Origin: a virus
Lineage: Duplodnaviria; Heunggongvirae; Uroviricota; Caudoviricetes
Length of the DNA stretch: 35,499 bases
Strand: one strand, 5' to 3'
IMG/VR virus record: IMGVR_UViG_2718217860_000003
Positions 4,751 to 34,215 of the stretch are shown here, piece by piece (position 1 is the first letter of the stretch; each line of letters opens with the position of its first letter). The translations under genes and the position numbers were made by a program. The notes under the pieces are model-generated. The model searched no databases. It worked only from the letters and a program-made list of their open reading frames with translations, and was not told where the DNA came from.

Positions 4751-4808
4751 AAAAAGGGCGGCAGAGCAGTCACGGAGTAAAACTGATACCGCCAAACGTC
4801 ACCAGAAA
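4751..4808 (-). ncRNA. dicF: DicF small RNA (ftsZ-targeting antisense sRNA) with its intrinsic terminator
   Basis: The minus strand reads UUUCUGGUGACGUUUGGCGGUAUCAGUUUUACUCCGUGACUGCUCUGCCGCCCUUUUU, a GGCGG...CCGCC hairpin followed by a U-run, lying between ydfC and dicB as in the Qin dicB operon. Ends are approximate. Confidence 0.85.
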
Positions 4809-9653: not shown

Positions 9654-9967
9654 TTGTCGATTTAGCAAAACAGAGAATGCTTTGAAAGTTTCACCGAGAA
9701 ATATTTATTGTGAACCTCCTTATTGTTTATCGACTTTTACTCTCCGCTCATTGCAGTACTGTCGGAGAAGGCTACTATGTACAAGAAGCAGCTAACATAA
9801 GCGAGCATCACTATTGATATTAGGAAGAGTATATAAAAACTTCATGCTGAACCTTACAAAAGTAGGTAAACCGGCAATGGCCTAAGTGGCAGGGTCATGT
9901 TGATCCGGCACTGCCGAGCTAATAATTAACAAGCAAATCACTCTTTCTAATAATTTGTTGAAATAAA

Positions 9968-10627
9968 CTAAATATGTATATGTTTACCAACAACCACATA
10001 TGAACTACCTGCTTTGCTCCATGATTTTATTATTTCTAAATTATTATCTGAGCATATTTTACTTACAGTATCCACATCTAATAAACCATAGTAGAAAGCA
10101 TTACGAGAGTTTTGGTATATATACCCATGCAAATGTTTAATACCGCTCTCGTACCTCTTGAAATAAGAACTTTTGTATTGATTGACAATCAGTGCTTCAC
10201 CATCACTCTTTAATAATTCTCTAATCGCACTGAGGACTTTGTGAATTGTGGATTCACATGGAATTGCGGAAAGCACGTTTGCGCAAAGTATGAAATCATA
10301 ATGATTTGTTATTTTATCTATATTTTCATAAGAAACAATATTAGCATTCTTATAGTTATTTATCACGTAATCTGGAATCGTGGTTTGTACACCTCTGATA
10401 ATTTGCACTCTTTCTAGTTGTCTTCTGGAATCTAAAAATGTCACAGTTTCAAATTTATTTACTAATTGTTCTGAATATCTAAGTTTTCCACATCCAAAAT
10501 CAAGGGCATTGCCATTTTTATTAGTGCTTTCAATCTGTTTACAGAGATAGTTAGATGGCATAGTGTGCGGTTTCGCTGCATTTTCTGAACGTATGTTTAT
10601 TCCATTTATTTTGTAATTCAAAATCAA
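9968..10627 (-). CDS. Class I SAM-dependent methyltransferase (not a recognisable DNA methyltransferase)
   Basis: 219-aa ORF with SAM-binding motif I (ALDFGCGKLRYSEQL), an acidic post-I residue (VTFLDSRRQ) and a motif II-like segment (DFILCANVLSAIP). No DPPY/NPPY or PCQ motifs. Confidence 0.75.
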   Translation of the reverse strand: MILNYKINGINIRSENAAKPHTMPSNYLCKQIESTNKNGNALDFGCGKLRYSEQLVNKFETVTFLDSRRQLERVQIIRGVQTTIPDYVINNYKNANIVSYENIDKITNHYDFILCANVLSAIPCESTIHKVLSAIRELLKSDGEALIVNQYKSSYFKRYESGIKHLHGYIYQNSRNAFYYGLLDVDTVSKICSDNNLEIIKSWSKAGSSYVVVGKHIHI

Positions 10628-10633
10628 CCTCGT

Positions 10634-11341
10634 TTAAAAAATATTGTTATTGTTAAAGAATTCTTTTATTTTGCTATCAGGTATTTGTCTTACTTGGCTT
10701 TCTGTTCTTGGTTTAACTGATGCTATGAAAATAAGGAAGTCAAATGCGACAAGAGAAATAATCCACAACCAAAGATTAATTAAAGAGCCAGTAACAGAGA
10801 ATATATTTGTTAATTTGGCGATACTTATTATTAAAATAGTAACAAATGCGATTACTGTATGTTCAAAGAAAACCCAAAAGTAATAAACTTTGTTCCAGAA
10901 AAGTTCAACGTAATGTTTGTCTTTTAACTCTTTAACTTCTGGGTAATACAGTTTACTCATTACCTTGTGAGATTCATCAGTAGTTAATTTTCTCGTAACG
11001 CCTGCAATTTTTGCTAATGGTTTAATAATTAAATGACTATCCCACATCTTCCTTATTCCAATAATTTTTGCTACATTATTATGTAGATCTAAAGCTCCAC
11101 TAATTACTGACCAAAAAACTGAAGATGCAATTGGTAATATGCCAAAGGTTAATATCCATTTAATAAATTCCTCGTAGTCTTTAACGGGGGGGATATACTT
11201 GGCATTAATGCCAACCAATGGCATGTAGCCATAAATGACTAATGATAGGTAAAATATAAATGTAGTAATAAAAGTCGCCTTATGGAGCATAGGCAACATT
11301 TCATTATAACTCTTTGGTGGTTCTAACATTTTACTCTCCAA
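10634..11341 (-). CDS. Integral membrane protein (about 4 predicted TM helices), function unknown; forms an operon with the downstream methyltransferase
   Basis: 235-aa ORF with several long hydrophobic stretches; its stop lies 6 bp from the methyltransferase start on the same strand. Confidence 0.7.
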   Translation of the reverse strand: MESKMLEPPKSYNEMLPMLHKATFITTFIFYLSLVIYGYMPLVGINAKYIPPVKDYEEFIKWILTFGILPIASSVFWSVISGALDLHNNVAKIIGIRKMWDSHLIIKPLAKIAGVTRKLTTDESHKVMSKLYYPEVKELKDKHYVELFWNKVYYFWVFFEHTVIAFVTILIISIAKLTNIFSVTGSLINLWLWIISLVAFDFLIFIASVKPRTESQVRQIPDSKIKEFFNNNNIF

Positions 11342-12014
11342 ACATTCAAAAAAAAGCTAATCTTCTATAATAACGAAATTCAGCTGGCACAATTAAAGAT
11401 TAATTGCCACCAATTTCTTGATTTTATAATTTTATCTAAATGTTTTTGATTAATCTAGTCCTAAAAGAAACCTACTGCATAAATATTTATGCTGATGACC
11501 CACTCCCTGTTCGTTAACACATAGCAACGTTAGTAATGCATCCTAAGTGATCAATATTTTTGCTAGCTTCATCTGCTCGCTCAAAGGGAACTATAATGTT
11601 GGCTTGCGTGTGACTTGGCATGTTTAAAGAAGTGCTGGTGGTGACTGGTTGCTGTTTTCCATTTCCACAGAACAAAATCATAGAAACTATACCCAGTAGT
11701 TGTATTGAATCACTGACGAGACAGCCTCATATTTATCAGGACTGGTGTACGTCCAATACAGGAGGTTGTGGTGCTGGTTCTCAAATGTGCGCTGGCTATT
11801 GCTGCTGTAATGGCAATTTATTGTCTTGCTGTTGTTCTTATGGATCACCTTTCTGATTGATTTCATATTGGCGAGGTAACGGTAGTTAAGTAGAATTGCT
11901 GCGGGTGCTTGAGGCTATCTGCCTCGGGCATCAACACCAAAGGCAGATAGAGAAAAGCCCCAGTTAACATTACGCGTCCGGCAAGACGCTTAACATTAAT
12001 CTGAGGCCATATCT

Positions 12015-12227
12015 ATGCTCTACACACGTAGGTTAGCCTCTTACGTGCCGAAAGGCAAGGAGAAGCAGGCTATGAAGCAGCAAAAGGCGATGCTAATCGC
12101 CCTGATCGTCATCTGTTTAACCGTCATAGTGACGGCACTGGTAACGAGGAAAGACCTCTGCGAGGTACGAATCCGAACCGGTCAGACGGAGGTCGCTGTC
12201 TTCACAGCTTACGAACCTGAGGAGTAA
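12015..12227 (+). CDS. Mok-like leader ORF in frame with hokD (N-terminally extended reading frame)
   Basis: The track ORF starts 19 codons upstream of the Hok Met in the same frame. Confidence 0.35.
   Translation: MLYTRRLASYVPKGKEKQAMKQQKAMLIALIVICLTVIVTALVTRKDLCEVRIRTGQTEVAVFTAYEPEE
12072..12227 (+). CDS. hokD: Hok/Gef-family type I toxin (HokD/RelF-like)
   Basis: 51-aa product MKQQKAMLIALIVICLTVIVTALVTRKDLCEVRIRTGQTEVAVFTAYEPEE with AAGGAG RBS; single TM helix and conserved Hok C-terminus. Confidence 0.9.
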   Translation: MKQQKAMLIALIVICLTVIVTALVTRKDLCEVRIRTGQTEVAVFTAYEPEE

Positions 12228-14103: not shown

Positions 14104-14478
14104 ATGCTCATAGATTTGGTTTTACCTTACCCGCCGACGGTGAACACTTACTGGCGACGCCGTGGCAGCACATATTTTATCTCGGAGGAGGGAAAGCGTT
14201 ATCGCCGGGCTGTGGCGCTTATTGTTCGCCAGCAGCGGCTGAAATTAAGCCTGTCCGGAAGGCTAGCGATAAAGGTGATTGCAGAGCCACCGGATAAGCG
14301 TCGTCGCGACCTGGACAATATCCTGAAAGCACCGCTGGATGCGCTGACGCATGCGGGAGTGTTAATGGACGATGAGCAGTTTGATGAAATCAATATCGTT
14401 CGTGGTCAGCCAGTATCTGGTGGACGTATGGGGGTGAAGATTTACCCCATAATGCATGAAGAGCAGGTCAAAAAATGA
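14104..14478 (+). CDS. rusA: RusA-family Holliday-junction resolvase
   Basis: 124-aa ORF with conserved acidic residues (PDKRRRDLDNILKAPLDAL...VLMDDEQ) matching the RusA fold; overlaps the Q start by 4 nt. Confidence 0.8.
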   Translation: MLIDLVLPYPPTVNTYWRRRGSTYFISEEGKRYRRAVALIVRQQRLKLSLSGRLAIKVIAEPPDKRRRDLDNILKAPLDALTHAGVLMDDEQFDEINIVRGQPVSGGRMGVKIYPIMHEEQVKK

Positions 14479-15296
14479 AACTGGAAGATTTACCGAAATA
14501 CTACTCCCCAAAATCCCCTTGCCTGACCGATGCATCGGCCTCAACGTCAAAAGATGCGCTGAGTATCACTGATGTGATGGCCGCGCAGGGCATGACACAG
14601 AATCGGGCTGAGATGGGGTTTTCTGCGTTCCTGGGGAAAATGGGCATCAGTATGAATGACAGGGCGCGGGCAACAGAATTACTGGCAGATTATGCACTCA
14701 GTCGGTGCGATCGTGTGGCGGCGTTGAGAAAACTTCCGGCAGAAATAAAACCGTTAGTGATGCGCATTATGGCTTCGTACGCTTTTGAGGATTATGCCCG
14801 CAGCGCAGCGAGTAAAAAGCAGTGCCCTTGTTGCTATGGGGAAAAATTTATTGAAAGCGTAGTTTTTACAAACAAGGTCCAGTATCCGGATGGTAAGCCG
14901 CCGGTATGGGCAAAGTGTACGAAAGGTGTGTATCCGTCTTACTGGGAAGAATGGAAAAAAGTCAGGGAGGTGGTAAAAGTTGCCTGTCCGGAGTGTGGCG
15001 GAAAGGGTGAGGTTTCCACCGTCTGTAAGGATTGCCGTGGGCGTGGTGTCGCCATTCACCGTGAAGAGTCGGTAAAACGTGGTATGCCTGTTATCAGAGA
15101 CTGCCAGCGTTGTGGTGGTCGTGGCTATGAAAGACTACCATCAACGGAGGCATTTAATGCTATATGCGAGGTGACAAACCAGATAACACGCGCGTCATGG
15201 GAAAAAACAGTTAAGAAATTCTATGATGCGCTGGTGACCCGGTTTGATATTGAAGAAGCATGGGCTGAGCGGCAGTTAAAAAAGGTAACTAGGTAA
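14475..15296 (+). CDS. quuQ: Late-gene antiterminator Q (Q21/Q82-type, zinc-finger containing)
   Basis: 273-aa ORF with Cys clusters (CPCCYG, CPECGGKGE, CKDCRGRG, CQRCGGRG), immediately upstream of a promoter/terminator pair and the lysis genes. Confidence 0.8.
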   Translation: MKLEDLPKYYSPKSPCLTDASASTSKDALSITDVMAAQGMTQNRAEMGFSAFLGKMGISMNDRARATELLADYALSRCDRVAALRKLPAEIKPLVMRIMASYAFEDYARSAASKKQCPCCYGEKFIESVVFTNKVQYPDGKPPVWAKCTKGVYPSYWEEWKKVREVVKVACPECGGKGEVSTVCKDCRGRGVAIHREESVKRGMPVIRDCQRCGGRGYERLPSTEAFNAICEVTNQITRASWEKTVKKFYDALVTRFDIEEAWAERQLKKVTR

Positions 15297-15439: not shown

Positions 15440-15515
15440 GGTCCTTTAGCTCAGTGGTGAGAGCGAGCGACTCATAATCGCCAGGTCGCTGGTTCAAATC
15501 CAGCAAGGGCCACCA
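15440..15515 (+). tRNA. tRNA with CAU anticodon (ileX/ileZ-type tRNA-Ile2 if lysidine-modified; reads as Met by anticodon alone)
   Basis: Cloverleaf: acceptor GGTCCTT/AAGGGCC, D-arm GCTCAGTGGTGAGAGC, anticodon loop CTCATAA, T-arm GGTTCAAATCC, 3' ACCA. One A-C mismatch at the base of the anticodon stem. Confidence 0.8.
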
Positions 15516-15621: not shown

Positions 15622-15698
15622 GCGTTGTTAGCTCAGCCGGACAGAGCAATTGCCTTCTAAGCAATCGGTCACTGGTTCGAATCCAGTACAGCGCGCCA
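15622..15698 (+). tRNA. tRNA-Arg (UCU anticodon)
   Basis: Acceptor GCGTTGT/ACAGCGC, D-arm AGCTCAGCCGGACAGAGC, anticodon loop CTTCTAA, T-arm GGTTCGAATCC, 3' GCCA. Confidence 0.8.
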
Positions 15699-16162: not shown

Positions 16163-16695
16163 ATACATATCTGGATTATCACCTGTTACGGTAAAAAGTG
16201 ATTGCTTACTGTTTTTGTGAATGGCATTGCAGCAGCCGGATAATGTCAGTGCTGGCTGACGGTGTGCTGGTGGCGGGTGTGGTGGTTGTTGCTTTCCCGT
16301 TGCTGAAAAAGAAAACGCCAGACTGTTAGCCGGGTATCAGTTAGCGGGAGAAATTTTTAAATACTTCACAATTCAGGCGGTTGACTGTTCTCTGGTTTGC
16401 GGGGAGTTTGTTAAAAGAAACTGGCATGGTGAATCCCCCTGTGCGGAGGGGCAATCAGCGAGTAGGCATATGGGATAATCGCGGATTCAGGTGCTGGTAC
16501 TGAATTCACCGGGAGGCACCCGGCACCATGCACTTCAATAGATTCTCTCCACATTATGGATATTCTTTCAGAATATCCCACGCAGACTTTGTGTAAATGT
16601 TAACAAATGTGCGTTTTATTTGATCTGATTCGCTGTTTGAGCGTCCAAAACAACGGTATATATAATCCTTTACTATATGACATATGTGAGGAAAA

Positions 16696-17124
16696 ATGGG
16701 TTTTCGTAGCGCATCAATTCTTACGTTGATTATTAGTGGGATTATTATCGGGTGCACTGATGCTGTATCGACAAATTATCATGACCGTACATCATATTAC
16801 TCCGATAAAGCAATAGAGACACAGTATGTGAGTTCATCTGAACGTACTTCTGATGTTAGTGAGGATATCCGTCTGTATGCCCATCAAATCAAGAGCGCCA
16901 TCGAAAAACAGTTCGGGGATGCGAGTAAGTATTCAGGAAAAGAGTGTACACTGAGAATGCATATGGCCCCGAATGGCCTTCTACTGGAGGTTAAAAGAGA
17001 AAGTGGAGACCTCGATTTATGTCGTGAAGCGATGAATGCGATAAAGAATGCTGATATACCTGCCCCCCCTTCGCCGGAAGTATATAAAGTATTTCAAAAT
17101 GGGGTGCTGGATTTTAAACCCTGA
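16696..17124 (+). CDS. Lipoprotein with a TolA C-terminal (domain III)-like domain
   Basis: 142-aa ORF; lipobox LIISGIIIGC; C-terminal segment (YAHQIKSAIEKQFGDASKYSGKECTLRMHMAPNGLLLEVKRESGDLDLCREAMNAIKNADIPAPPSPEVYKVFQNGVLDFKP) closely parallels the E. coli TolA domain III sequence as recalled. Confidence 0.8.
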   Translation: MGFRSASILTLIISGIIIGCTDAVSTNYHDRTSYYSDKAIETQYVSSSERTSDVSEDIRLYAHQIKSAIEKQFGDASKYSGKECTLRMHMAPNGLLLEVKRESGDLDLCREAMNAIKNADIPAPPSPEVYKVFQNGVLDFKP

Positions 17125-17274
17125 TATTTATTGTTTTGTAATAAACGGTTTCGGCTTAGGTTTGTTCTGACACAACTACGGCACTGAGCTAAATTTAGCG
17201 GATAGTCAGCTCTGAGCCAGTGGCGGACGTAACAACTACTATTGCTGAGATTTTAATGGATTGAGGAGCAAGAA

Positions 17275-17670
17275 GTGGGATTAAAGAAAATCGTTATGTT
17301 GACTTTTTGGGTCGGTTTTGTTGCGGGATGCACACCTTTACACCCTTCAGATTGCCACAAAACTACTGCTACAGGTAGTTGCAGTTCAGGACGCTGGGAT
17401 GATCAGGATGAATGGGGGGCGCAAGCGCGGGGAATCAGAGCTGCAATTAATGCCAAACTTGATGAGCCGCATAACTGGAAAGGGAAAATATGCAGGTTGC
17501 ATATGGAATTCTCTCAGGATGGCACGGCGTTAAAAATATCTACCAGTAACGGTGATAAAGCCTATTGCGAAGCGATAAAGTCCGCAGCTCATAAAGCCAA
17601 ATTTCCGGCCTTCAACAATCCGAAAGTCTACAGAGATTTTCAGAAATCTGGCTTTGACATGCGAGGTTAG
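17275..17670 (+). CDS. Second, divergent lipoprotein with a TolA domain III-like C-terminus (paralogue of the upstream gene)
   Basis: 131-aa ORF; lipobox VGFVAGC; shares KxCxLHM...G..L...........C.A...A.......P....VY..FQ spacing with the upstream protein and TolA-III. Confidence 0.7.
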   Translation: MGLKKIVMLTFWVGFVAGCTPLHPSDCHKTTATGSCSSGRWDDQDEWGAQARGIRAAINAKLDEPHNWKGKICRLHMEFSQDGTALKISTSNGDKAYCEAIKSAAHKAKFPAFNNPKVYRDFQKSGFDMRG

Positions 17671-20073: not shown

Positions 20074-20766
20074 TCAAATCTTATCTAACTCATTATAGGC
20101 TTCGATAATAAAAATTCTGATTTTAATAAGGCATGATTCAATGAAAGGAATTACTTCATGGTCATTCCCATGGAATCTTATTTTTTTCTCTTCGGTAATG
20201 ACTATGTTTAAAGGTACACCATTACCACTTCTTTGTAATTTCCCATTTTCGAAAGTAAAGTCTTCTAATTTTTTGCCATTGATGTGGTTGTTTTTAAAGA
20301 GAATTTTTGCTGAGCTTCCTGCTGTGATTAAACCAAAACCATCTACGCTCACACTTAGGTCTTTAACAGAACTCTCTTCTCTTAAGGGGATTGGTTGTCT
20401 GTGCTTTACTTCATTAGTGAGATTACACATCATTTCCAACCAAGATTCGCCAGTGTGATAATCCTGTATAGAAGTAAAAATTTTATATAATGGAGAAGAT
20501 GATGGTGGGTTTATTTTTAGCGTCTTTGAGAAAAATTTATCAATAAACTCTTTTTTTCCGTAAGGGAAATATATTTTGGGGCGCTCATCATTACTGCGTG
20601 GAGAAATATATTTATCATAGGTATCATTAGCGAGATACTCTAAGGAACTTCGTAAGTTTTCCAAAATAGCTTTGACTTTTACAGGCTTGATATGCTGTGT
20701 CTGTCTCATTATGCCAAGACTTTCTTCAACTTCTTGCAATAAGTCCAACGAGCCTTCTCTAGACAT
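20074..20766 (-). CDS. Hypothetical protein in an AT-rich moron between the lysis cassette and terminase
   Basis: 230-aa ORF in a visibly AT-rich segment, opposite strand to the flanking late genes; no family recognised. Confidence 0.65.
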   Translation of the reverse strand: MSREGSLDLLQEVEESLGIMRQTQHIKPVKVKAILENLRSSLEYLANDTYDKYISPRSNDERPKIYFPYGKKEFIDKFFSKTLKINPPSSSPLYKIFTSIQDYHTGESWLEMMCNLTNEVKHRQPIPLREESSVKDLSVSVDGFGLITAGSSAKILFKNNHINGKKLEDFTFENGKLQRSGNGVPLNIVITEEKKIRFHGNDHEVIPFIESCLIKIRIFIIEAYNELDKI

Positions 20767-21337
20767 ACAGGTAATTCTCCTTTATGAATTTTCAACATGT
20801 TATAACTAATAATATATTTATCATATAACTGTATGAATAAATTGTGAGATTAGTAATGCAAGTTTCTATCCATAGTGTTCTCTAAGTACCCGCTTCCATC
20901 ATGTTGTTACGGACGGTATGGCTAAAACAAAGCACCTGAAGTTAAACGTTCTGAACTTTATGCTCGTTGAGCATATGAATTATCTGTAACCCGATGCGCT
21001 GGTTGTGGTTCACATTGATGGTCGTAATCAGCAGCGGTGGTGCCTGATGGCATGCAACTTCTTACTTATAAAACTTCGTATGGAATTGTTGCCATAACGA
21101 GCCCAGCTTAGCAGTTTTTAATGGGTCCTCCCGGCAGTGTGTCCTGCCACGGGGCGGGAGCGTCGCGGAAAAAGGCTAGTTTTTGAAATTTCATTCGTCA
21201 TCACCACTACTTTAATATATTGATATTACAGTGGTTTTATTTTTATGGTGTCGATTTTGATTGTTTTTTGTTCATCACTAACACCGTTTGCCTAAAGTTG
21301 TTCGCAAGATGCATGTTTAAAACATTCTGGAGCGGGT

Positions 21338-21638
21338 ATGGATCGAGAGTTGAAAAATCTGACGCTGAATATCAGTCAACTGGCGGCACTGTCAGGTGTA
21401 CATCGCCAGACTGCTGCGGCAAGGCTGCAAAATCTACCCGTTGCAGGGGGGCATGAAAGCAACCTCAAGCTTTATCGGGTGGTTGATATTGTGTCGGCAT
21501 TTCTGGCATTGCCACCGCCGGTTGCAGAAGGCGAAATGGACGCGCATGAGCGCAAAGCCTGGTATCAGTCTGAACGTGAGCGTCTTAAGTTCGAACAGGA
21601 AACGGCACAACTCATTCCGGCCAGTGATGTCAGACGGG
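21338..21638 (+). CDS. Terminase small subunit (Nu1/NohA-like), 3'-truncated by the assembly gap
   Basis: N-terminal HTH-like segment (LNISQLAALSGVHRQTAAARL); the ORF runs into the N-run. Confidence 0.6.
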
Positions 21639-21738
21639 NNNNNNNNNNNNNNNNNNNNNNNNNNNNNNNNNNNNNNNNNNNNNNNNNNNNNNNNNNNNNN
21701 NNNNNNNNNNNNNNNNNNNNNNNNNNNNNNNNNNNNNN
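21639..21738. other. Assembly gap (100 N) between terminase and tail gene M
   Basis: Run of 100 ambiguous bases; terminase-large through tail gene H are absent from the window. Confidence 0.99.
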
Positions 21739-21765
21739 TGGTCGGTTAAGTGGAGCATATCGGTA

Positions 21766-22095
21766 ATGGAGACGTTTCACTGGAAAGTGCGCCCGGATAT
21801 GAATGTGGTATCAGAGCCGAAAGTGGTGACAGTGAAGCTGGGCGATGGTTATGAACAGCGTCGTGTGGCGGGACTGAATAACCAGTTGTCGACTTACAGC
21901 GTGACGATACGTGTTCGTAAATGTGAACACCCATCTTTAAAAGCCTTTCTGGAACGGCACGGTGGCGTCCGCGCATTTCAGTGGACGCCACCTTATGACT
22001 GGAAGCCGATCAGGGTGGTTTGTCGTAAATGGTCGGCGAGCGTAGGGGCGCTGTGGGTAACCATAACGGCAGATTTTGAACAGGTCGTGGCATAG
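21766..22095 (+). CDS. M: Tail tip assembly protein M (lambda M-like)
   Basis: 109-aa ORF METFHWKVRPDMNVVSEPKVVTVKLGDGYEQR..., same length and pattern as lambda gpM. Confidence 0.9.
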   Translation: METFHWKVRPDMNVVSEPKVVTVKLGDGYEQRRVAGLNNQLSTYSVTIRVRKCEHPSLKAFLERHGGVRAFQWTPPYDWKPIRVVCRKWSASVGALWVTITADFEQVVA

Positions 22096-22104
22096 GAGGC
22101 TCTG

Positions 22105-22803
22105 ATGCAGGATATTCCACAGGAAACACATCATGAGACGACACGCCTCACTCAGTCAGCCCTGGTGGTGCTCTGGGAAATCGATCTGACAGAGGTCGGT
22201 GGAGAACGTTATTTTTTCTGTAATGAGCAGAACGAAAAAGGTGAGCCGGTTACCTGGCAGGGGCGGCAGTATCAGGCATACCCCATTCAGGGGACGGGAT
22301 TTGAACTGAACGGCAAGGGCAGTGCTGCCCGTCCGACACTGACGGTTTCTAACCTGCACGGCATGGTCACCGGGATGGCGGAAGACCTGCAGAGTCTGGT
22401 CGGCGGAACGGTGGTCAGGCGTAAGGTTTACGCCCGTTTTCTGGATGCGGTGAACTTCGTCAACGGAAACAGCGACGCCGATCCGGAGCAGGAGGTGATC
22501 AGCCGCTGGCGCATCGAGCAGTGCAGCGAACTGAGTGCGGTCAGTGCCTCCTTTGTGTTGTCCACACCGACGGAAACGGATGGTGCCGTTTTTCCGGGGC
22601 GCATCATGCTGGCTAATACCTGCACCTGGACCTATCGCGGTGATGAGTGCGGTTATCACGGTCCGGCGGTCGCGGATGAATATGATCAGCCGACGTCCGA
22701 TATCACGAAGGATAAATGCAGCAAATGCCTGAGCGGTTGTAAGTTCCGCAATAACGTCGGCAACTTTGGCGGCTTCCTTTCCATTAACAAACTTTCGCAG
22801 TAA
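22105..22803 (+). CDS. L: Tail tip assembly protein L (lambda L-like)
   Basis: 232-aa ORF with the conserved C-terminal Cys cluster (CTWTYRGDECGYHG...CSKCLSGC). Confidence 0.9.
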   Translation: MQDIPQETHHETTRLTQSALVVLWEIDLTEVGGERYFFCNEQNEKGEPVTWQGRQYQAYPIQGTGFELNGKGSAARPTLTVSNLHGMVTGMAEDLQSLVGGTVVRRKVYARFLDAVNFVNGNSDADPEQEVISRWRIEQCSELSAVSASFVLSTPTETDGAVFPGRIMLANTCTWTYRGDECGYHGPAVADEYDQPTSDITKDKCSKCLSGCKFRNNVGNFGGFLSINKLSQ

Positions 22804-22808
22804 ATACC

Positions 22809-23552
22809 ATGACACAGACAGAATCAGCGATTCTGGCGCACGCCCGGCGATGTGCGCCAGCGGAGTCGTGCGGCTTCGTGGTGAGAACACCGGAGGGGGA
22901 AAGATATTTTCCCTGCGTGAATATCTCTGGTGAGCCGGAGGCGTATTTCCGGATGTCGCCGGAGGACTGGCTGAGTGCAGAAATGCAGGGAGAGATTGTG
23001 GCGCTGGTCCACAGCCACCCCGGTGGTCTGCCCTGGCTGAGTGAGGCCGACCGGCGGCTGCAGGTGCAGAGTGATTTGCCGTGGTGGCTGGTCTGCCGGG
23101 GGGCGATTCATAAATTCCGCTGTGTGCCGCATCTCACCGGGCGGCGCTTTGAGCACGGGGTGACGGACTGTTACACGCTGTTCCGGGACGCTTACCATCT
23201 GGCGGGAATTGAGATGCCGGATTTTCATCGCGGGGATGACTGGTGGCGTCACGGCCAGAATCTCTATCTTGACAATATGGAGGCAACGGGTTTTTACCGT
23301 GTCCCACTGACAGAGGCGCAGCCTGGCGACGTGCTGCTGTGCTGTTTTGGTTCATCGGTGCCGAATCATGCCGCCATTTACTGTGGCGACGGCGAGCTGC
23401 TGCACCATATTCCTGAACAACTGAGTAAACGAGAGAGGTACACCGACAAATGGCAGCGACGCACACACTCCCTCTGGCGTCACCGGGCATGGCACGCATC
23501 TGCCTTTACGGGGATTTGCAACGATTTGGTCGCCGTATCGACCTTCGTGTGA
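22809..23552 (+). CDS. K: Tail assembly protein K (lambda K-like, MPN/JAB + NlpC/P60 domains)
   Basis: 247-aa ORF; HSHPGG (JAB-type) motif and a Cys/His peptidase-like region. The conventional lambda K start corresponds to Met49 at 22953 (199 aa). The 3' end overlaps gene I by 103 nt, as in lambda. Confidence 0.85.
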   Translation: MTQTESAILAHARRCAPAESCGFVVRTPEGERYFPCVNISGEPEAYFRMSPEDWLSAEMQGEIVALVHSHPGGLPWLSEADRRLQVQSDLPWWLVCRGAIHKFRCVPHLTGRRFEHGVTDCYTLFRDAYHLAGIEMPDFHRGDDWWRHGQNLYLDNMEATGFYRVPLTEAQPGDVLLCCFGSSVPNHAAIYCGDGELLHHIPEQLSKRERYTDKWQRRTHSLWRHRAWHASAFTGICNDLVAVSTFV

Positions 23553-24097
23553 AAACGGGGGCTGAAGCCATCCGGGCACTGGCCACACAGCTCCCGGTGT
23601 TTCGTCAGAAACTGAATGAGGGCTGGTATCAGGTGCGCATTGCCGGGCGTGATGCAGGCGAAAATGAATTATCTGCCCGTCTTAATGAGCCGCTGGCAAA
23701 TGGTGCCGTGATCCACATCGTGCCGCGTCTGGCGGGAGCTAAAAGTGGCGGTGTGTTTCAGGTGGTGCTTGGGGCGGCGCTGATTGCGGTGGCATGGTGG
23801 AACCCTGTGGGCTGGCTGGGGGCCGCGGCTGTATCGGGCATGTATGCGGCAGGGGCCAGTATGATCCTGGGCGGAGTGGCGCAGATGCTGGCACCGAAAG
23901 CCAGGACGCCCACGGCAGCCAGTACAGATAACGGCAAACAGAACACCTATTTCTCCTCACTGGATAACATGGTTGCCCAGGGCAATGTTCTGCCGGTTCT
24001 GTACGGTGAAATGCGCGTGGGGTCACGCGTGGTTTCTCAGGAGATCAGCACGGCAGACGAAGGGGACGGTGGTCAGGTTGTGGTGATTGGTCGCTGA
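23450..24097 (+). CDS. I: Tail assembly protein I (lambda I-like)
   Basis: 215-aa ORF MAATHTLPLASPGMARICLYGDLQRFGRRIDLRVKTGAEAIRALATQLP..., matching lambda gpI ends as recalled. Confidence 0.9.
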   Translation: MAATHTLPLASPGMARICLYGDLQRFGRRIDLRVKTGAEAIRALATQLPVFRQKLNEGWYQVRIAGRDAGENELSARLNEPLANGAVIHIVPRLAGAKSGGVFQVVLGAALIAVAWWNPVGWLGAAAVSGMYAAGASMILGGVAQMLAPKARTPTAASTDNGKQNTYFSSLDNMVAQGNVLPVLYGEMRVGSRVVSQEISTADEGDGGQVVVIGR

Positions 24098-24116
24098 TGC
24101 AAAATGTTTTATGTGA

Positions 24117-24143
24117 AACCGCCTCCGGGCGGTTTTGTCGTTT
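24117..24143 (+). terminator. Terminator-like hairpin between I and J
   Basis: AACCGCC-TCCG-GGCGGTT followed by TTGTCGTTT. Confidence 0.35.
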
Positions 24144-24157
24144 ATGGAGCGTGAGGA

Positions 24158-27100
24158 ATGGGTAAAGGCAGCAGTAAGGGGCATACCCCGCGCGAAGCAA
24201 AGGACAACCTGAAGTCCACGCAGTTGCTGAGTGTGATCGATGCCATCAGCGAAGGGCCGGTTGAAGGTCCGGTGGATGGATTAAAAAGCGTGCTGCTGAA
24301 CAGTACACCGGTGCTGGACAGTGAGGGGAATACTAACATCTCCGGTGTCACGGTGGTGTTCCGGGCAGGTGAGCAGGAACAGACACCGCCGGAGGGATTT
24401 GAATCATCAGGTTCCGAGACGGTACTGGGTACGGAAGTGAAATACGACACGCCGATCACCCGGACCATCACGTCGGCAAACATTGACCGTCTGCGCTTTA
24501 CCTTCGGTGTGCAGGCACTGGTGGAAACCACCTCAAAGGGGGACAGGAATCCGTCGGAAGTTCGCCTGCTGGTTCAGATACAACGTAACGGTGGCTGGGT
24601 GACGGAAAAAGACATCACCATTAAGGGCAAAACCACCTCGCAGTATCTGGCCTCGGTAGTGGTGGATAATTTGCCGCCGCGCCCGTTCAACATCCGGATG
24701 CGCAGGATGACGCCGGACAGCACCACAGACCAGCTGCAGAACAAAACGCTCTGGTCGTCATACACCGAAATCATCGATGTGAAACAGTGCTACCCGAACA
24801 CGGCACTGGTCGGCGTACAGGTGGATTCGGAGCAGTTCGGCAGCCAGCAGGTGAGCCGTAATTATCATCTGCGCGGGCGCATTCTGCAGGTGCCGTCGAA
24901 CTATAACCCGCAGACGCGGCAATACAGCGGTATCTGGGACGGAACGTTTAAGCCAGCATACAGCAACAACATGGCCTGGTGTCTGTGGGATATGCTGACC
25001 CATCCGCGCTACGGCATGGGGAAACGTCTTGGTGCGGCGGATGTGGACAAATGGGCGCTGTATGTCATCGGCCAGCATTGCGATCAGTCGGTGCCGGACG
25101 GTTTTGGCGGCACGGAGCCGCGCATCACCTGTAATGCGTACCTGACCACACAGCGTAAGGCGTGGGATGTGCTCAGTGATTTCTGCTCGGCGATGCGCTG
25201 TATGCCGGTATGGAACGGGCAGACGCTGACGTTCGTGCAGGACCGACCGTCGGATAAGGCGTGGACCTATAACCGCAGTAATGTGGTGATGCCGGATGAT
25301 GGCGCGCCGTTCCGCTACAGCTTCAGCGCCCTGAAAGACCGCCATAATGCCGTTGAGGTGAACTGGATTGACCCGAACAACGGCTGGGAGACGGCGACAG
25401 AGCTTGTGGAGGATACGCAGGCCATTGCCCGTTACGGTCGTAACGTCACGAAGATGGATGCCTTTGGCTGTACCAGCCGGGGGCAGGCACACCGCGCCGG
25501 GCTGTGGCTGATTAAAACGGAGCTGCTGGAAACGCAGACCGTGGATTTCAGCGTGGGTGCCGAAGGGCTTCGCCATGTGCCGGGTGATGTTATTGAAATC
25601 TGCGATGATGACTATGCCGGTATCAGCACCGGCGGGCGCGTGCTGGCGGTGAACAGCCAGACCCGGACGCTGACGCTCGACCGTGAAATCACGCTGCCAT
25701 CCTCCGGTACCACGCTGATAAGCCTGGTTGACGGAAGTGGCAATCCGGTCAGCGTGGAGGTCCAGTCCGTCACCGACGGCGTGAAGGTAAAAGTGAGCCG
25801 TGTTCCTGACGGCGTTGCCGGATACAGCGTATGGGGGCTGAAGCTGCCGACGCTGCGCCAGCGCCTGTTCCGCTGCGTGAGTATCCGTGAGAACGATGAC
25901 GGCACGTATGCCATCACCGCCGTGCAGCATGTACCGGAAAAAGAGGCCATCGTGGATAACGGGGCGCACTTTGACGGCGACCAGAGCGGCACGGTGAATG
26001 GTGTCACGCCGCCAGCAGTGCAGCATCTGACCGCAGAAGTCACCGCAGACAGCGGGGAATACCAGGTGCTGGCCCGCTGGGACACGCCGAAGGTGGTGAA
26101 GGGCGTGAGCTTCCTGCTTCGCCTGACCGTGGCAGCGGATGACGGCAGTGAGCGGCTGGTCAGCACGGCCCGGACGACGGAAACCACATACCGCTTCACG
26201 CAACTGGCGCTGGGGAATTACAGGCTGACAGTCCGGGCGGTAAATGCGTGGGGACAGCAGGGCGATCCGGCATCGGTATCGTTCCGGATTGCCGCACCGG
26301 CAGCGCCGTCTCGGATTGAGCTGACGCCGGGCTATTTTCAGATAACCGCCACGCCGCATCTTGCGGTTTATGATCCGACGGTACAGTTTGAGTTCTGGTT
26401 CTCGGAAAAGCGGATTGCGGATATCAGGCAGGTTGAAACCACAGCACGCTATCTTGGTACGGCGTTGTACTGGATAGCCGCCAGTATCAATATCAGGCCG
26501 GGCCATAATTATTATTTTTACGTTCGCAGTGTGAACACCGTTGGCAAATCGGCATTCGTGGAGGCTGTTGGTCAGCCGAGTGATGACGCATCCGGCTATC
26601 TGGATTTTTTCAAAGGCGAGATAGGGAAAACCCATCTGGCTCAGGAGCTGTGGACGCAGATTGATAACGGTCAGCTTGCGCCTGACCTGGCTGAAATCAG
26701 GACATCCATTACGGATGTCAGCAATGAAATCACACAGACCGTCAATAAGAAACTGGAAGACCAGAGTGCGGCAATCCAGCAGATACAGAAAGTTCAGGTT
26801 GATACAAATAATAACCTGAACAGCATGTGGGCTGTGAAGCTGCAGCAGATGCAGGACGGACGCCTTTATATCGCGGGTATCGGTGCCGGTATTGAGAATA
26901 CGCCAGCAGGAATGCAGAGTCAGGTGCTGCTGGCGGCAGACAGGATTGCGATGATTAATCCTGCGAATGGCAACACAAAGCCGATGTTTGTTGGTCAGGG
27001 CGATCAGATATTCATGAACGAAGTGTTCCTGAAATATCTGACGGCTCCCACCATTACCAGCGGCGGTAATCCTCCGGCATTTTCCCTGACACCGGACGGG

Positions 27101-27637
27101 CGGCTGACGGCGAAAAATGCCGATATCAGCGGTAACGTGAATGCGAACTCCGGGACGCTCAACAATGTCACGATAAATGAGAACTGTCAGATTAAAGGGA
27201 AACTGTCAGCCAACCAGATTGAAGGCGATATTGTCAAAACAGTGGGTAAGGCTTTCCCGCGGGACTCCCGGGCACCGGAGCGGTGGCCATCAGGGACCAT
27301 TACCGTCAGGATTTATGACGATCAGCCGTTTGACCGGCAGATTGTTATTCCCGCGGTGGCGTTTCGTGGCGCTAAACATGAGCGGGAGAATAACGATATT
27401 TATTCGTCATGCCGCCTGATAGTGAAGAAAAACGGTGCTGAAATTTATAACCGTACCGCGCTGGATAATACGCTGGTTTATACAGGTGTTATTGATATGC
27501 CTGCTGGTCGCGGTCACATGACGCTGGAGTTTTCGGTATCAGCGTGGCTGGTAAATGACTGGTATCCCACAGCCAGTATCAGTGATTTGCTGGTTGTGGT
27601 GATGAAGAAATCCACAGCAGGTATCACGATTAGCTGA
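24158..27637 (+). CDS. J: Host-specificity tail tip protein J (central tail fibre)
   Basis: 1159-aa [24 protein letters not shown]... with a lambda-J-like C-terminal receptor-binding region. Confidence 0.95.
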
Positions 27638-27657
27638 ATTTTCATAACCCATATGCG

Positions 27658-27682
27658 GGCGCCATTTCTGGCGCCTTTTTTA
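27658..27682 (+). terminator. Intrinsic terminator downstream of J
   Basis: GGCGCC-ATTTCT-GGCGCC hairpin followed by TTTTTTATT. Confidence 0.65.
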
Positions 27683-27705
27683 TTGCAGAAAAGCGAGAGG
27701 TAATT

Positions 27706-28305
27706 ATGCGTAAAGTTTGTGCAGCCATTTTGTCCGCAGCCATCTGTCTGGCCGTATCCGGTGCGCCTGCATGGGCGTCTGAGCAGCAGGCCACGCTGAG
27801 CGCAGGGTATCTTCATGCCCGTACGAACGCTTCCGGCAGCGATAATCTGAACGGGATTAACGTGAAATACCGTTATGAGTTTACGGACACGCTGGGGCTG
27901 ATTACGTCATTCAGTTATGCCAACGCTGAAGATGAGCAAAAAACGCATTACAGCGATACCCGCTGGCATGAGGATTCCGTGCGTAATCGCTGGTTCAGCG
28001 TGATGGCGGGGCCGTCTGTGCGCGTGAATGAATGGTTCAGCGCGTATGCGATGGCGGGTATGGCTTACAGCCGTGTGTCGACTTTCTCCGGGGATTATCT
28101 CCGCGTAACTGACAACAAGGGGAAAAAGCACGATGTGCTGACCGGAAGTGATGACGGTCGCCACAGCAACACGTCTCTGGCGTGGGGAGCTGGCGTGCAG
28201 TTTAACCCGACCGAATCCGTGGCCATTGATGTCGCTTATGAAGGCTCCGGCAGTGGTGACTGGCGCACTGACGGGTTCATCGTGGCTGTTGGTTATAAAT
28301 TCTGA
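27706..28305 (+). CDS. lom: Outer-membrane protein Lom (Ail/OmpX family)
   Basis: 199-aa ORF with signal peptide (AICLAVSGAPAWA) and beta-barrel C-terminal ...VGYKF. Confidence 0.9.
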   Translation: MRKVCAAILSAAICLAVSGAPAWASEQQATLSAGYLHARTNASGSDNLNGINVKYRYEFTDTLGLITSFSYANAEDEQKTHYSDTRWHEDSVRNRWFSVMAGPSVRVNEWFSAYAMAGMAYSRVSTFSGDYLRVTDNKGKKHDVLTGSDDGRHSNTSLAWGAGVQFNPTESVAIDVAYEGSGSGDWRTDGFIVAVGYKF

Positions 28306-28332
28306 TTAGCCAGGTAACACAGTGTTATGACA

Positions 28333-28358
28333 GCCCGCCGGTTCAGGCGGGCTTTTTT
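28333..28358 (+). terminator. Intrinsic terminator downstream of lom
   Basis: GCCCGCC-GGTTCA-GGCGGGC hairpin followed by TTTTTT. Confidence 0.7.
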
Positions 28359-28369
28359 GTGGGGTGAAT

Positions 28370-31300
28370 ATGGCAGTAAAAATTTCAGGTGTACTGAAAG
28401 ACGGCACAGGAAAACCGGTACAGAACTGCACAATCCAGCTGAAAGCAAAACGTAACAGTACCACGGTGGTGGTGAACACGCTGGCATCTGAAAATCCGGA
28501 TGAAGCCGGGCGTTACAGTATGGACGTTGAGTACGGTCAGTACAGCGTTATTCTGTTGGTGGAAGGATTCCCGCCGTCACATGCCGGGACCATCACAGTG
28601 TATGAAGATTCCCGACCCGGTACGCTGAATGATTTTCTCGGTGCCATGACGGAGGATGATGCCCGTCCGGAGGCACTGCGCCGTTTTGAGCTGATGGTGG
28701 AAGAGGTGGCGCGTAACGCGTCCGTGGTGGCACAGAACACGGCAGCCGCGAAGAAGTCAGCCAGTGATGCCAGCACATCAGCCCGTGAGGCGGCAACCCA
28801 TGCGACTGATGCTGCAGGCTCAGCACGCGCAGCCAGCACGTCAGCCGGACAGGCCGCGTCGTCGGCTCAGTCAGCGACTTCCAGCGCAGGAACGGCATCA
28901 ACAAAGGCCACTGAAGCATCAAAAAGTGCTGCCGCTGCAGAGTCCTCAAAAAGCGCGGCAGCTACCAGTGCCAGTGCCGCAAAAACGTCAGAAACGAATG
29001 CTGCAGCGTCACAACAATCAGCAGCCACTTCTGCATCCACCGCGACTACGAAAGCGTCAGAAGCTGCCACCTCAGCCCGGGATGCGGCGGCTTCAAAAGA
29101 GGCGGCAAAATCATCAGAAACGAACGCATCCTCGAGCGCCAGTAGCGCAGCTTCCTCGGCAACAGCGGCAGGAAATTCCGCGAAGGCGGCAAAAACGTCA
29201 GAGACGAACGCCAGGTCTTCTGAAACGGCAGCGGGACAGAGCGCCTCGGCTGCGGCAGGCTCAAAAACAGCGGCTGCGTCGTCTGCCAGTGCAGCGTCAA
29301 CAAGTGCCGGGCAGGCCTCAGCCAGTGCTAGCGCCGCCGGAAAATCGGCAGAAAGCGCCGCATCGTCTGCTTCAACAGCCACAACGAAGGCTGGCGAAGC
29401 CACTGAACAGGCCAGCGCAGCAGCGAGGTCTGCTTCCGCAGCGAAGACATCCGAAACGAACGCGAAAGCGTCGGAAACCAGCGCAGAATCCTCAAAAACG
29501 GCTGCCGCATCGTCAGCCAGTTCGGCGTCGTCATCGGCATCATCTGCGTCTGCTTCAAAAGATGAGGCGACCAGACAGGCGTCAGCAGCGAAGGGTAGCG
29601 CCACGACGGCATCCACGAAGGCGACAGAGGCAGCTGGCAGTGCGACGGCAGCAGCTCAGAGCAAAAGTACGGCGGAATCCGCGGCAACGCGCGCTGAGAC
29701 AGCGGCAAAACGGGCAGAGGATATTGCATCCGCCGTGGCGCTTGAGGATGCGAGCACGACGAAAAAGGGGATAGTACAGCTCAGCAGTGCGACCAACAGC
29801 ACTTCCGAGTCACTGGCGGCAACGCCAAAAGCCGTTAAGGCCGCGTATGACCTGGCTAACGGGAAATACACCGCACAGGATGCAACGACAGCACAGAAAG
29901 GGATAATCCAGCTAAGCAGCGCGACCAACAGCACGTCTGAAACGCTGGCGGCAACGCCAAAGGCAGTAAAATCAGCCTATGACAATGCAGAGAAACGTCT
30001 GCAGAAAGACCAGAACGGCGCTGATATACCCGATAAGGGACGCTTCCTGAACAACATTAACGCGGTCAGTAAAACAGACTTTGCTGATAAGCGTGGTATG
30101 CGTTATGTGCGGGTTAACGCTCCTGCAGGTGCAACATCTGGAAAATATTACCCTGTTGTTGTTATGCGTTCTGCTGGCTCAGTAAGCGAACTGGCATCAA
30201 GGGTCATTATCACCACGGCAACGCGAACCGCAGGCGATCCGATGAATAACTGCGAGTTTAACGGATTTGTTATGCCTGGTGGCTGGACTGACAGGGGGCG
30301 TTATGCTTATGGAATGTTCTGGCAATATCAAAACAATGAACGAGCCATCCACTCAATAATGATGAGTAATAAGGGCGATGATTTGCGCTCTGTGTTCTAT
30401 GTTGATGGCGCTGCTTTCCCTGTTTTTGCGTTTATCGAAGATGGCCTGTCAATATCCGCACCTGGTGCTGATCTCGTTGTTAATGATACGACCTATAAGT
30501 TTGGGGCAACAAATCCAGCGACTGAATGTATCGCGGCGGACGTTATCCTTGATTTTAAGAGTGGGCGTGGTTTTTATGAGTCTCATTCGTTAATCGTTAA
30601 CGATAACTTGTCGTGCAAAAAACTTTTTGCCACAGACGAAATTGTAGCGCGTGGTGGTAATCAGATTCGAATGATAGGTGGGGAGTATGGGGCATTATGG
30701 CGTAATGATGGCGCTAAAACTTACCTGCTGCTTACCAATCAAGGTGATGTTTATGGTGGATGGAATACATTAAGACCGTTTGCTATTGATAACGCAACCG
30801 GCGAACTGGTTATTGGAACCAAGCTGTCTGCAAGTCTGAACGGTAACGCATTGACAGCAACAAAGCTGCAAACGCCAAGACTGGTTTCTGGGGTTGAGTT
30901 TGATGGTTCAAAAGATATTACTTTAACCGCCGCGCATGTGGCTGCTTTTGCCAGAAGGGCAACGGATACATATGCCGATGCGGATGGTGGCGTTCCCTGG
31001 AATGCCGAATCAGGCGCTTACAATGTCACCCGCTCTGGCGACAGCTATATTCTGGTTAACTTCTATACCGGAGTCGGAAGTTGCCGGACCCTGCAGATGA
31101 AGGCGCATTACAGAAATGGTGGTCTGTTCTACCGTTCTTCAAGAGACGGTTATGGTTTTGAGGAAGACTGGGCAGAAGTTTATACCTCGAAAAATCTTCC
31201 ACCAGAAAGCTACCCAGTCGGCGCACCAATCCCGTGGCCATCAGATACCGTTCCGTCTGGTTATGCCCTGATGCAGGGGCAGACTTTTGACAAATCTGCC

Positions 31301-31900
31301 TACCCGAAACTTGCAGCCGCTTATCCGTCAGGCGTGATCCCTGATATGCGTGGCTGGACGATTAAGGGCAAGCCCGCCAGTGGTCGTGCCGTATTGTCTC
31401 AGGAACAGGACGGCATAAAATCGCATACCCACAGCGCCAGCGCATCCAGTACTGATTTGGGGACGAAAACCACATCGTCGTTTGATTACGGCACTAAATC
31501 CACGAATAACACTGGTGCGCATACCCATAGTTTAAGTGGCAGCACGAATGCAGCTGGTAATCACAGCCATAGAGATGGCCGTCGATTTAACCCCAGTGTT
31601 TTTAAAGATACTTATCAATATGGTTATACAAGCTCAGGTCAAAATACCTGGGGTGTACAAGGCTCAGTAGGTATGTCTACGGGGGCGTTAGCTAATACCA
31701 GTACAGATGGTAACCATAGCCACTCACTGTCCGGCACAGCAGCATCTGCAGGTGCACACGCACATACTGTCGGTATTGGTGCACACACGCACTCCGTTGC
31801 GATTGGTTCACATGGACACACCATCACCGTTAACGCTGCTGGTAACGCGGAAAACACCGTCAAAAACATCGCATTTAACTATATTGTGAGGCTTGCATAA
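28370..31900 (+). CDS. stf: Side tail fibre protein Stf
   Basis: Begins [26 protein letters not shown]... (the track ORF starts 2 codons earlier at GTG); long Ala/Ser-rich low-complexity shaft, tandem repeat units, His-rich HxH C-terminal tip. Confidence 0.9.
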
Positions 31901-32481
31901 TGGCATTCAGAATGAGTGAACAACCACGGACCATAAAAATTTATAATCTGCTGGCCGGAACTAATGAATTTATTGGTGAAGGTGACGCATATATTCCGCC
32001 TCATACAGGTCTGCCAGCAAACAGTACCGATATTGCACCGCCAGATATTCCTGCTGGCTTTGTGGCTGTTTTCAACAGTGATGAGGCATCGTGGCATCTC
32101 GTTGAAGATCATCGGGGAAAAACCGTCTATGACGTGGCTTCCGGCGACGCGTTATTTATTTCTGAACTTGGCTCGTTACCGGAAAATGTCACCTGGTTAT
32201 CGCCGGAAGGGGAATATCAGAAGTGGAACGGCACAGCCTGGGTGAAGGATACGGAAGCAGAAAAACTGTTCCGGATCCGGGAGGCGGAAGAAACAAAAAA
32301 CAACCTGATGCAGGTAGCCAGTGAGCATATTGCGCCGCTTCAGGATGCTGCAGATCTGGAAATTGCAACGGAGGAAGAAATCTCGTTGCTGGAAGCCTGG
32401 AAGAAGTATCGGGTGTTGCTGAACCGTGTTAATACAACAACTGCACCGGATATTGAATGGCCAGTAGCACCTATAGGGTAA
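31900..32481 (+). CDS. tfa: Tail fibre assembly protein Tfa
   Basis: 193-aa ORF; start overlaps the stf stop (TAATG); conserved Tfa C-terminus ...[31 protein letters not shown]. Confidence 0.9.
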
Positions 32482-33070
32482 ATTCGTAATGATTACCTAA
32501 ATACGTTATTCTTTTGTTCAAAAAGTGATTTTTCTATAGGTAGGGAGTATGTTCTTGGATTAAGAATAAAAAATCGCCATGAAAGAGCTTCATGGCGAGT
32601 ACATAAACGTACAAAATATGATGAAAGTAGAGTGGCGTAAGCCACTATATTAAGATATGACAATAGCGAAGAAAAGTAAATAACATTTTATGGGCGTTTA
32701 ATTGTTAATTATAAAAACTAGAGTGCCCGATATTGTTTATCTTGCTTTAAAATAATGTACTCAAACCAAATTTTTGAGCTAAAAGCTCAAATAATATAAA
32801 TGCAATGATAATGTTTAATAAGACAATTAGCTTGCTTTGTATTTTCATTTCGGAATACTGTTAAGTAACTTTGATGACACTAACAATAGATCGGAATTTT
32901 CTTAGAGTCAATGGTCACTGTTTTTGCTTGCAAAGCAAATCTTTTTGGTGGTTATAAGTTTTCTTAATATAGTCACCTATGCAACTTGTTCCGTGTGGAG
33001 ATTAAAGGTTAAAATTTAATGCGAAGATGGAATTATAATATATTTTTTTATAATTAATTTAACCTTAACA

Positions 33071-33169
33071 TCGTTGCTGGCGGCATGGAAGAAATATCGG
33101 GTCTTGCTGATGTCGTGTTGGCACTTCCTTAGTGCGGTTATCGAATGGCCAGCTGTACCTGTGGGGTAA
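33071..33169 (+). pseudogene. Relic 3' fragment of a second tfa gene
   Basis: DNA homologous to the last 33 codons of tfa ([13 protein letters not shown]...IEWPAVPVG*), with no upstream reading frame. Confidence 0.7.
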
Positions 33170-33301
33170 AAACTTTATATGGGTGCTATTTTTATAATAG
33201 CTGGTAAAAACTGGCCGAACTGAAATTCACTGTTGATAAAAAAGATGTGTTTGAGTGTATGTCATTGTTTTCTTAATGGAATCCACTAGAATGCAGCGAA
33301 T

Positions 33302-33499
33302 TTAAGAAGGTGGGTTTTTATTGGAATATAAACTACAATAATGCTCAACTCGTTCGTAGAATTGTTTTTTCTTATTTTTTGGAATGCTAACCATTATATG
33401 CATTATGGGGGCGATACTTCCTGATAATTTACATGATGCATACATTGAAGCAATAAATTCAATATCATTGTCATCAAAGTTAAAGCTTTCTCCGTCCAT
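33302..33499 (-). CDS. Hypothetical small protein (uncertain)
   Basis: 65-aa ORF with AAGGA about 7 nt upstream of the ATG, in an AT-rich gene-poor segment. Confidence 0.3.
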   Translation of the reverse strand: MDGESFNFDDNDIEFIASMYASCKLSGSIAPIMHIMVSIPKNKKKQFYERVEHYCSLYSNKNPPS

Positions 33500-34215
33500 T
33501 TCAATTCCTTATGTGTTTGGCACAACTGATGCTGTATCCCATGAGAATTTATGCAAGTTGTTATGTTTGATTTGATATTGCAATGATAATTGTAGCTAAT
33601 TGTTTTCAATTGAGTGAAAGTTTATTTCGAGTGATTAAGTCGAAAAAAAAGATTTCTCACGGTTAGTAAGCGTATTAGGTTAGTATTCAGATATGAATGG
33701 TATTAATGACTAAATTTTCAATCATATATGGATTTTTATGCTGATGAAGATGTTTTATTTGGCGATTCGTCAAGCATCTTCACTTAAGTAATCGTATATT
33801 TTAAGAGTGCAAAAGAGAAAGGGACAACGTTGCTCGCACTCTGGATTAAATATAGGGTGTTGTTAAACTGCGTTGATACATAATTGTACCGGATATTGAG
33901 TGGTCTGAAGTCCCAGTCATTAAGTAATCGTTTCGTGATATGCCGCAGAAACGTTGTATGCAATAACGTTCTGCGGTTGGCTGATGCACTTTCGAGAGTG
34001 TATTGAATAATTTCAAGCCGTTATTGTTTTTACGCGTAACACCATGAAAAGATTGCTTATCTGTTGGGGTGTTTTTTGGGGCATATATGGGACAGAAATA
34101 GGCCACAGATAGATAGTAAGATCGAACTCAGGATGTTTTTGAAAAAATGTAACTATCTGAAAAAACCTAGAAAGCGCCAAGGAAACCACAGAATGAGAAA
34201 AAACATCTGTGAATT

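Follow-up and report, generated by a model that had tools for sequence, protein, structure and literature searches.

In Escherichia coli K-12 the chromosomal site between ydfJ and rspB is occupied by the cryptic prophage Qin (NC_000913.3, 1632277-1652745), in which a true deletion has taken away the head genes and every tail gene ahead of the fibre, nohA now abutting stfQ, and which also carries an IS2 and an integrase gene (intQ) reduced to a pseudogene. The window, i.e. the whole stretch of 35,499 nucleotides analysed here, contains a prophage inserted at this same site, between rspB and a 5'-truncated ydfJ. It spans the region from 1 nt before the integrase stop codon (the int ORF is found at 2-1297 on the minus strand, the annotated CDS at 2-1282) to the stop codon of ydfJ, the 3' 1,284 nt of which are located at 34216-35499. 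Since host ydfJ sequence is reached at 34216, attR must be found to the left of this position; attL is outside the window. The right end (32500-35499) is no longer phage DNA, consisting of an AT-rich, almost ORF-free stretch (GC 0.34-0.40) followed by ydfJ.

The resemblance to Qin extends well beyond the insertion site. The early regions of the two elements share dicA/dicC-type regulators, ydfABC, DicF, dicB, ydfD, hokD, rem, a ydfU-type gene, Q and lysis genes of the essD/ydfR type. Unlike Qin, the window prophage has intact int and xis genes and has kept the tail genes M to J together with lom, stf and tfa. Its Nu1 analogue is a DUF1441 protein. The arrangement that characterizes the K-12 deletion, a Nu1 homologue abutting the tail fibre with M to J absent, is not the one found here: M is present and is followed on the plus strand by L (22105-22803), K (22809-23552, with JAB and NlpC/P60 domains), I (23450-24097) and J (24158-27637), as identified by Pfam searches. 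The window prophage looks like an undecayed form of the element known from K-12.

A second set of close relatives is provided by isolated phages. The structural module running from nu1 to J in a closed bacterial relative of the window prophage is 98.3-98.5% identical to that of mEp460 (NC_019716), Ayreon (MF807953) and vB_EcoS-569R4 (ON470598), and in mEp460 and Ayreon it is co-linear from position 1 of the records. The three phages differ from the window prophage in their early, immunity and lysis regions, and no phage record covered at least 80% of a 25-kb query taken from the closed relative (locus L002, positions 20000-44999). Position 1 of both the mEp460 and the Ayreon records corresponds to query position 7332 (27331 of L002), that is to window position 21313, located 25 nt before the small-terminase ATG. 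The cos site is therefore placed there, giving an approximate left end of the mature genome at 21313-21337 on the plus strand, the start of the records presumably coinciding with the physical cos end. At this level of identity, the module missing from the window would belong to a type carried by viable, isolated phages.

When E. coli genomes are assembled from short reads, it is typically within lambdoid prophages that the contigs break (PMC7175801). The gap found in the window is a commonplace artefact of assembly and has no biological meaning; the prophage is of a known kind, and there is nothing new in the gap itself. It has what is expected of a 100-N scaffold gap at a repeat break in a lambdoid prophage, namely exactly 100 N, edges 127 nt away from distinguishing sites and a breakpoint that recurs in many independent draft E. 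coli assemblies, and it differs from such gaps in nothing of substance.

The genes cut by the gap and the segment it replaces

The window contains a single run of non-ACGT letters, exactly 100 N at 21639-21738. By INSDC/NCBI convention, a gap whose size is not known is written as 100 N. The run was placed by software and is not a chance feature of the sequence; it is a scaffold-gap placeholder and its length is arbitrary.

Both edges of the run fall inside genes. On the left, an earlier note on this sequence had seen the small terminase gene run straight into the Ns, and this is indeed the case: an ORF opens with the ATG at 21338 on the plus strand and is cut after 301 nt, at 21638, leaving 100 codons and 1 nt ahead of the Ns out of the 495 nt (164 aa) of the full gene in closed relatives. 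Its product, the Nu1 analogue, matches Pfam DUF1441 (PF07278, E 2.7e-41) and PHROG 141 (phrog_141, 'terminase small subunit', E 7e-74). On the right, sequence is back at 21739 and the gpM start follows 27 nt on, at 21766, in agreement with the distance of about 28 bp given in the earlier note. Those nucleotides are more than a spacer, though: positions 21739-21766 on the plus strand are the final 28 nt of the tape-measure (gpH-type) gene, stop codon included (the product ending in GRLSGAYR), the other 3,038 nt of which belong to the gap. The tape-measure stop codon and the M ATG share 1 nt. The minor tail protein gene gpM (21766-22095, plus strand; PF05939, E 2.3e-39; phrog_14) is the first complete gene past the gap.

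What the Ns stand for can be read from finished genomes. Twelve closed E. coli chromosomes match both flanks at 99.9-100% identity, and in these the flanks lie on the same strand and are separated by 12,200 bp (n=12; 12,199 in CRE10). A base-by-base comparison was made with one of them, EC-JS426 (NZ_CP072322.1): window positions 1-21638 align to 584018-605655 with 1 mismatch in 21,638 nt, and positions 21739-35499 align to 617856-631616 with 0 mismatches in 13,761 nt. As the two arms are 12,200 bp apart in EC-JS426, the 100 N stand for 12,200 bp. The EC-JS426 prophage as a whole (584018-631616) thus differs from the window by 1 mismatch over 35,399 determined bases, shares its gene order and insertion site, and contains in addition the 12,200 bp absent from it. 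The flanks are non-contiguous in the finished genomes, their true distance being 12,200 bp against the 100 N of the window, and the earlier reading of an assembly gap in place of head and tail genes is upheld by the segment present in all twelve.

In three of the closed genomes (NZ_CP031134.1, NZ_CP195467.1 and NZ_CP082120.1) the right arm was matched in two pieces, over a span of 14,538 nt in two of them and 13,803 nt in one, compared with 13,761 nt in the window. This suggests that the J/tail-fibre region of these right arms contains insertions, of ~777 nt and ~42 nt.

The missing segment contains 13 ORFs in the closed genome, with no internal stops and no pseudogene flags, which could be identified by Pfam. 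In order, they are the 3' end of the small terminase gene (last 195 nt), a gpA-type large terminase (TerL), a 70-aa ORF, a lambda-family portal, a fusion of a ClpP protease with the major capsid protein, a cement (decoration) protein, a 91-aa protein of the Gifsy-2 family, the tail genes Z, U, V (a V-type tail tube), G and T, and the tape measure in its entirety except for the last 28 nt. This packaging, head and tail set is intact in all twelve closed relatives and is not represented in the window. The list of missing genes drawn up in the earlier note (large terminase, portal, protease/scaffold, capsid, head completion, tail tube, tape measure and H) was correct in substance, save that the tape measure and H are one and the same gene. 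Similarly, the head genes it named are absent from the window, but the module is of the mEp460/Gifsy type, with its protease/capsid fusion and cement protein, and not lambda's own. Its statement that the gap replaces most tail genes went too far: the missing tail genes are Z, U, V, G, T and H, and the window still encodes M, L, K, I, J, lom, the tail fibre and the fibre assembly protein.

Breakpoint geometry and the origin of the gap

The left edge of the gap is a breakpoint encountered in many other assemblies. The exact 100-aa truncated product of the left arm is found on 15 contigs under the name 'DUF1441 family protein, partial'. It clusters with other truncated versions to make up 131 in all, each of them derived from a draft E. 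coli assembly, the forms listed ranging from 64 to 101 aa. Ten contigs encoding the 100-aa product were fetched, and the gene was at the contig end in each of them; nine ended at the very same base as the left arm (window 21638) and the tenth (L131) was 2 nt shorter. No N gap adjoined the 100-aa and 101-aa forms that were checked, which are found at plain contig ends only. Likewise, a 40-nt pattern from the left flank matched at least 120 loci in viral contigs, with no N run among the loci listed. A pattern that bridges the gap, and that does recover the window itself, had no match in the viral, genome or metagenome contig collections.

Three of the draft assemblies (GCA_026228745.1, GCA_958401475.1 and GCA_036616435.1) each contain two such contigs, with differing upstream phage regions. 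In all three, the exact suffix common to the two contigs of a pair is precisely 127 nt, the differing base at -128 corresponding to window position 21511 (G here, A in the other allele). The terminal 127-mer of the left contig, common to a second prophage copy, is therefore at 21512-21638, 21511 being the last distinguishing base. This geometry predicts that the right contig should begin 127 nt ahead of the first distinguishing base, and the prediction was borne out: in three other alleles, taken from other closed genomes and not from the source genome, the first difference is at offset +127 (window 21866, T here and C in the other alleles), so that the first 127-mer of the right contig is at 21739-21865. 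As a rough estimate, with about one difference per 40-60 nt, an exact match to +127 would occur by chance about once in 1,000 for each edge. Contig pairs overlapping in this way are the hallmark of a de Bruijn graph assembler with k = 127, which is the largest k-mer used by SPAdes.

Consistent with such a break, 10 genomes among the 12 closest closed ones have the 12.2-kb module at 2 to 4 places and the other two (ARL09/232 and MS 145-7) at a single place, these figures being counts of places and not locations. For the tail genes M, L and K, the median number of places per E. coli genome is 3.

We thus propose that the source E. coli genome would hold the Qin-site prophage and at least one other lambdoid prophage, and that the packaging, head and proximal-tail module would be nearly identical between these co-resident elements. 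Two unique paths would converge on the shared prophage sequence and each contig would end one k-mer into it. With a de Bruijn assembler run at k = 127, the left contig would halt 127 nt past 21511, i.e. at 21638, and the right contig would begin 127 nt ahead of 21866, i.e. at 21739; a scaffolder or the submitter would then have placed the two contigs in their proper order and orientation, with 100 N between them. The content of the gap and the second copy in the source genome, as well as the software behind the join, are what we infer; the N run itself, the spacing and identity of the arms, the missing content in the relatives and the recurrent breakpoint with its 127-nt edges are direct observations. 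Taken together, we consider it highly probable that the N run is a placeholder for ~12.2 kb and 13 genes at a repeat-induced assembly break. Three considerations weigh against this reading: (i), not every member of this clone has the module twice, as illustrated by the two single-place genomes; (ii), 12.2 kb is too long to be bridged by a short-insert library and, (iii), a deleted copy accompanied by a complete second prophage would give an identical k = 127 geometry.

Integrity of the join and of the prophage

The pairing of the two arms is specific to a small group of genomes. The full left arm is found at ~100% identity in exactly 12 closed genomes, the next best match reaching 86% coverage at 98.3%, and the full right arm is found at 99.2% or more in the same 12, the next best being at 97.2%. 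In each of these 12 genomes a single prophage, at the rspB/ydfJ (Qin) site, contains both arms in co-linear order, with the integrase of the left arm adjoining rspB and the right arm ending in the 5'-truncated ydfJ. Because the integrase lies by rspB and the interrupted ydfJ is at the other end, the two arms belong to opposite sides of one insertion. In order and orientation, the join is very probably correct, and the prophage, judging from its relatives, is probably structurally complete.

There is little room for a gap that would hide either a deletion junction, which would make this a newly defective prophage, or a recombination or inversion between co-resident prophages through the shared 12-kb module, which would leave the arms with other partners; we regard the two together as improbable.

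A genuine deletion would have removed the region from the middle of nu1 to the end of H, leaving a short real gap and a prophage as defective as K-12 Qin. Such decay does happen, as shown by the true deletion, with nohA next to stfQ, in Qin at the same site, and if the real gap were short, the join would be within reach of a paired-end scaffolder; the k = 127 edges are also compatible with it, provided that a complete second prophage is present. The allele is nevertheless without precedent: when the two flanks were placed side by side as a query, they were adjacent (within ~1.1 kb) in 0 of 5,426 complete genomes, and each of the 12 closed genomes, which belong to the same clone (0 or 1 SNP vs EC-JS426), has kept the full 12.2 kb. 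Moreover, the K-12 deletion has other end points and removed M to J as well, and an assembler would normally read across a unique deletion junction and leave no gap there. The earlier note had allowed for a genuinely deleted prophage; with no such allele among the 5,426 genomes, we find this very unlikely.

The same note had warned that the join could link two different prophages. A scaffolding error would have this effect, as would a real recombination or inversion involving the module that they share. The break does arise from a module shared by at least two prophages, which is where scaffolders err, and distant strains pair the same left flank with other tail alleles, since 76 records match the left flank at 99% or more compared with 14 for the right flank. 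However, the full-length arms at near-100% identity are confined to the 12 closed genomes, where they always share a strand and are separated by 12.2 kb, and they are the two sides of one insertion site. A mis-join or rearrangement is thus very unlikely as well, and a second prophage would be involved as the cause of the break and not as a mis-joined partner. Finally, although some sequence collections mask stretches with N, a gap of just 100 real bases, masked or of low quality, is ruled out for practical purposes by the 12,200 bp, not 100, that separate the flanks in EC-JS426, by the two cut genes, which could not possibly be joined within 100 nt, and by the behaviour of both gap edges as contig ends.

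A repeat-induced break as the origin of the gap has several practical consequences. Annotators should not score the window prophage as defective or as devoid of structural genes, and neither the 100-aa DUF1441 product nor the ORF that reads through the Ns (21338-21766) should be taken for a real protein. A single repeat boundary has added clutter to public protein collections, in the form of 131 or more different truncated entries named 'DUF1441 family protein, partial', some with WP_ accessions. More generally, where related assemblies exist, the edges of a gap are enough to reveal its cause and even the k-mer size of the assembler.

Other features of the window

Several further features of the window deserve mention. 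A low-GC island (8754-11341; GC 0.31-0.33 vs ~0.47 elsewhere) lies between the replication region and hokD, in a place occupied in K-12 Qin by relBE, ydfV and flxA. One of the proteins encoded there has a SMEK domain, its N-terminal 140 aa matching the PADLOC model Aga_REase-PNTD1-PNTD2 (E 1e-20); the others are a SAM methyltransferase that matches mad2 weakly (E 1e-4) and a 235-aa protein for which no hit was obtained. The island may represent defence cargo. Another AT-rich segment (GC 0.34) contains a 230-aa hypothetical gene (20074-20766, minus strand) located between the lysis genes and cos, in a moron-like position; this gene gave no PADLOC hit.

Four RNA elements scored above the Rfam gathering score: the DicF sRNA (4756-4807, minus strand), the sok antitoxin beside hokD (11903-12077, plus strand), STnc100 (16395-16585, plus strand) and IS009 (32243-32441, plus strand), which overlaps the 3' end of the tail-fibre assembly gene. 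The only mismatch with EC-JS426, at position 16467 (C here, T in EC-JS426), falls inside the STnc100 hit.

Two tRNA genes (15440-15515 and 15622-15698) are found just downstream of the Q antiterminator gene (14475-15296). The first is called tRNA-Met (anticodon CAT) by ARAGORN, whereas its EC-JS426 counterpart is a tRNA-Ile in RefSeq, and it may be a lysidine-type tRNA-Ile2; the second is a tRNA-Arg (TCT). Between Q and the tRNAs on one side and the holin gene on the other, two ORFs with TolA C-terminal domains are present (16696-17670), one of which is a fragment according to RefSeq, an unusual position for cargo in the late operon.
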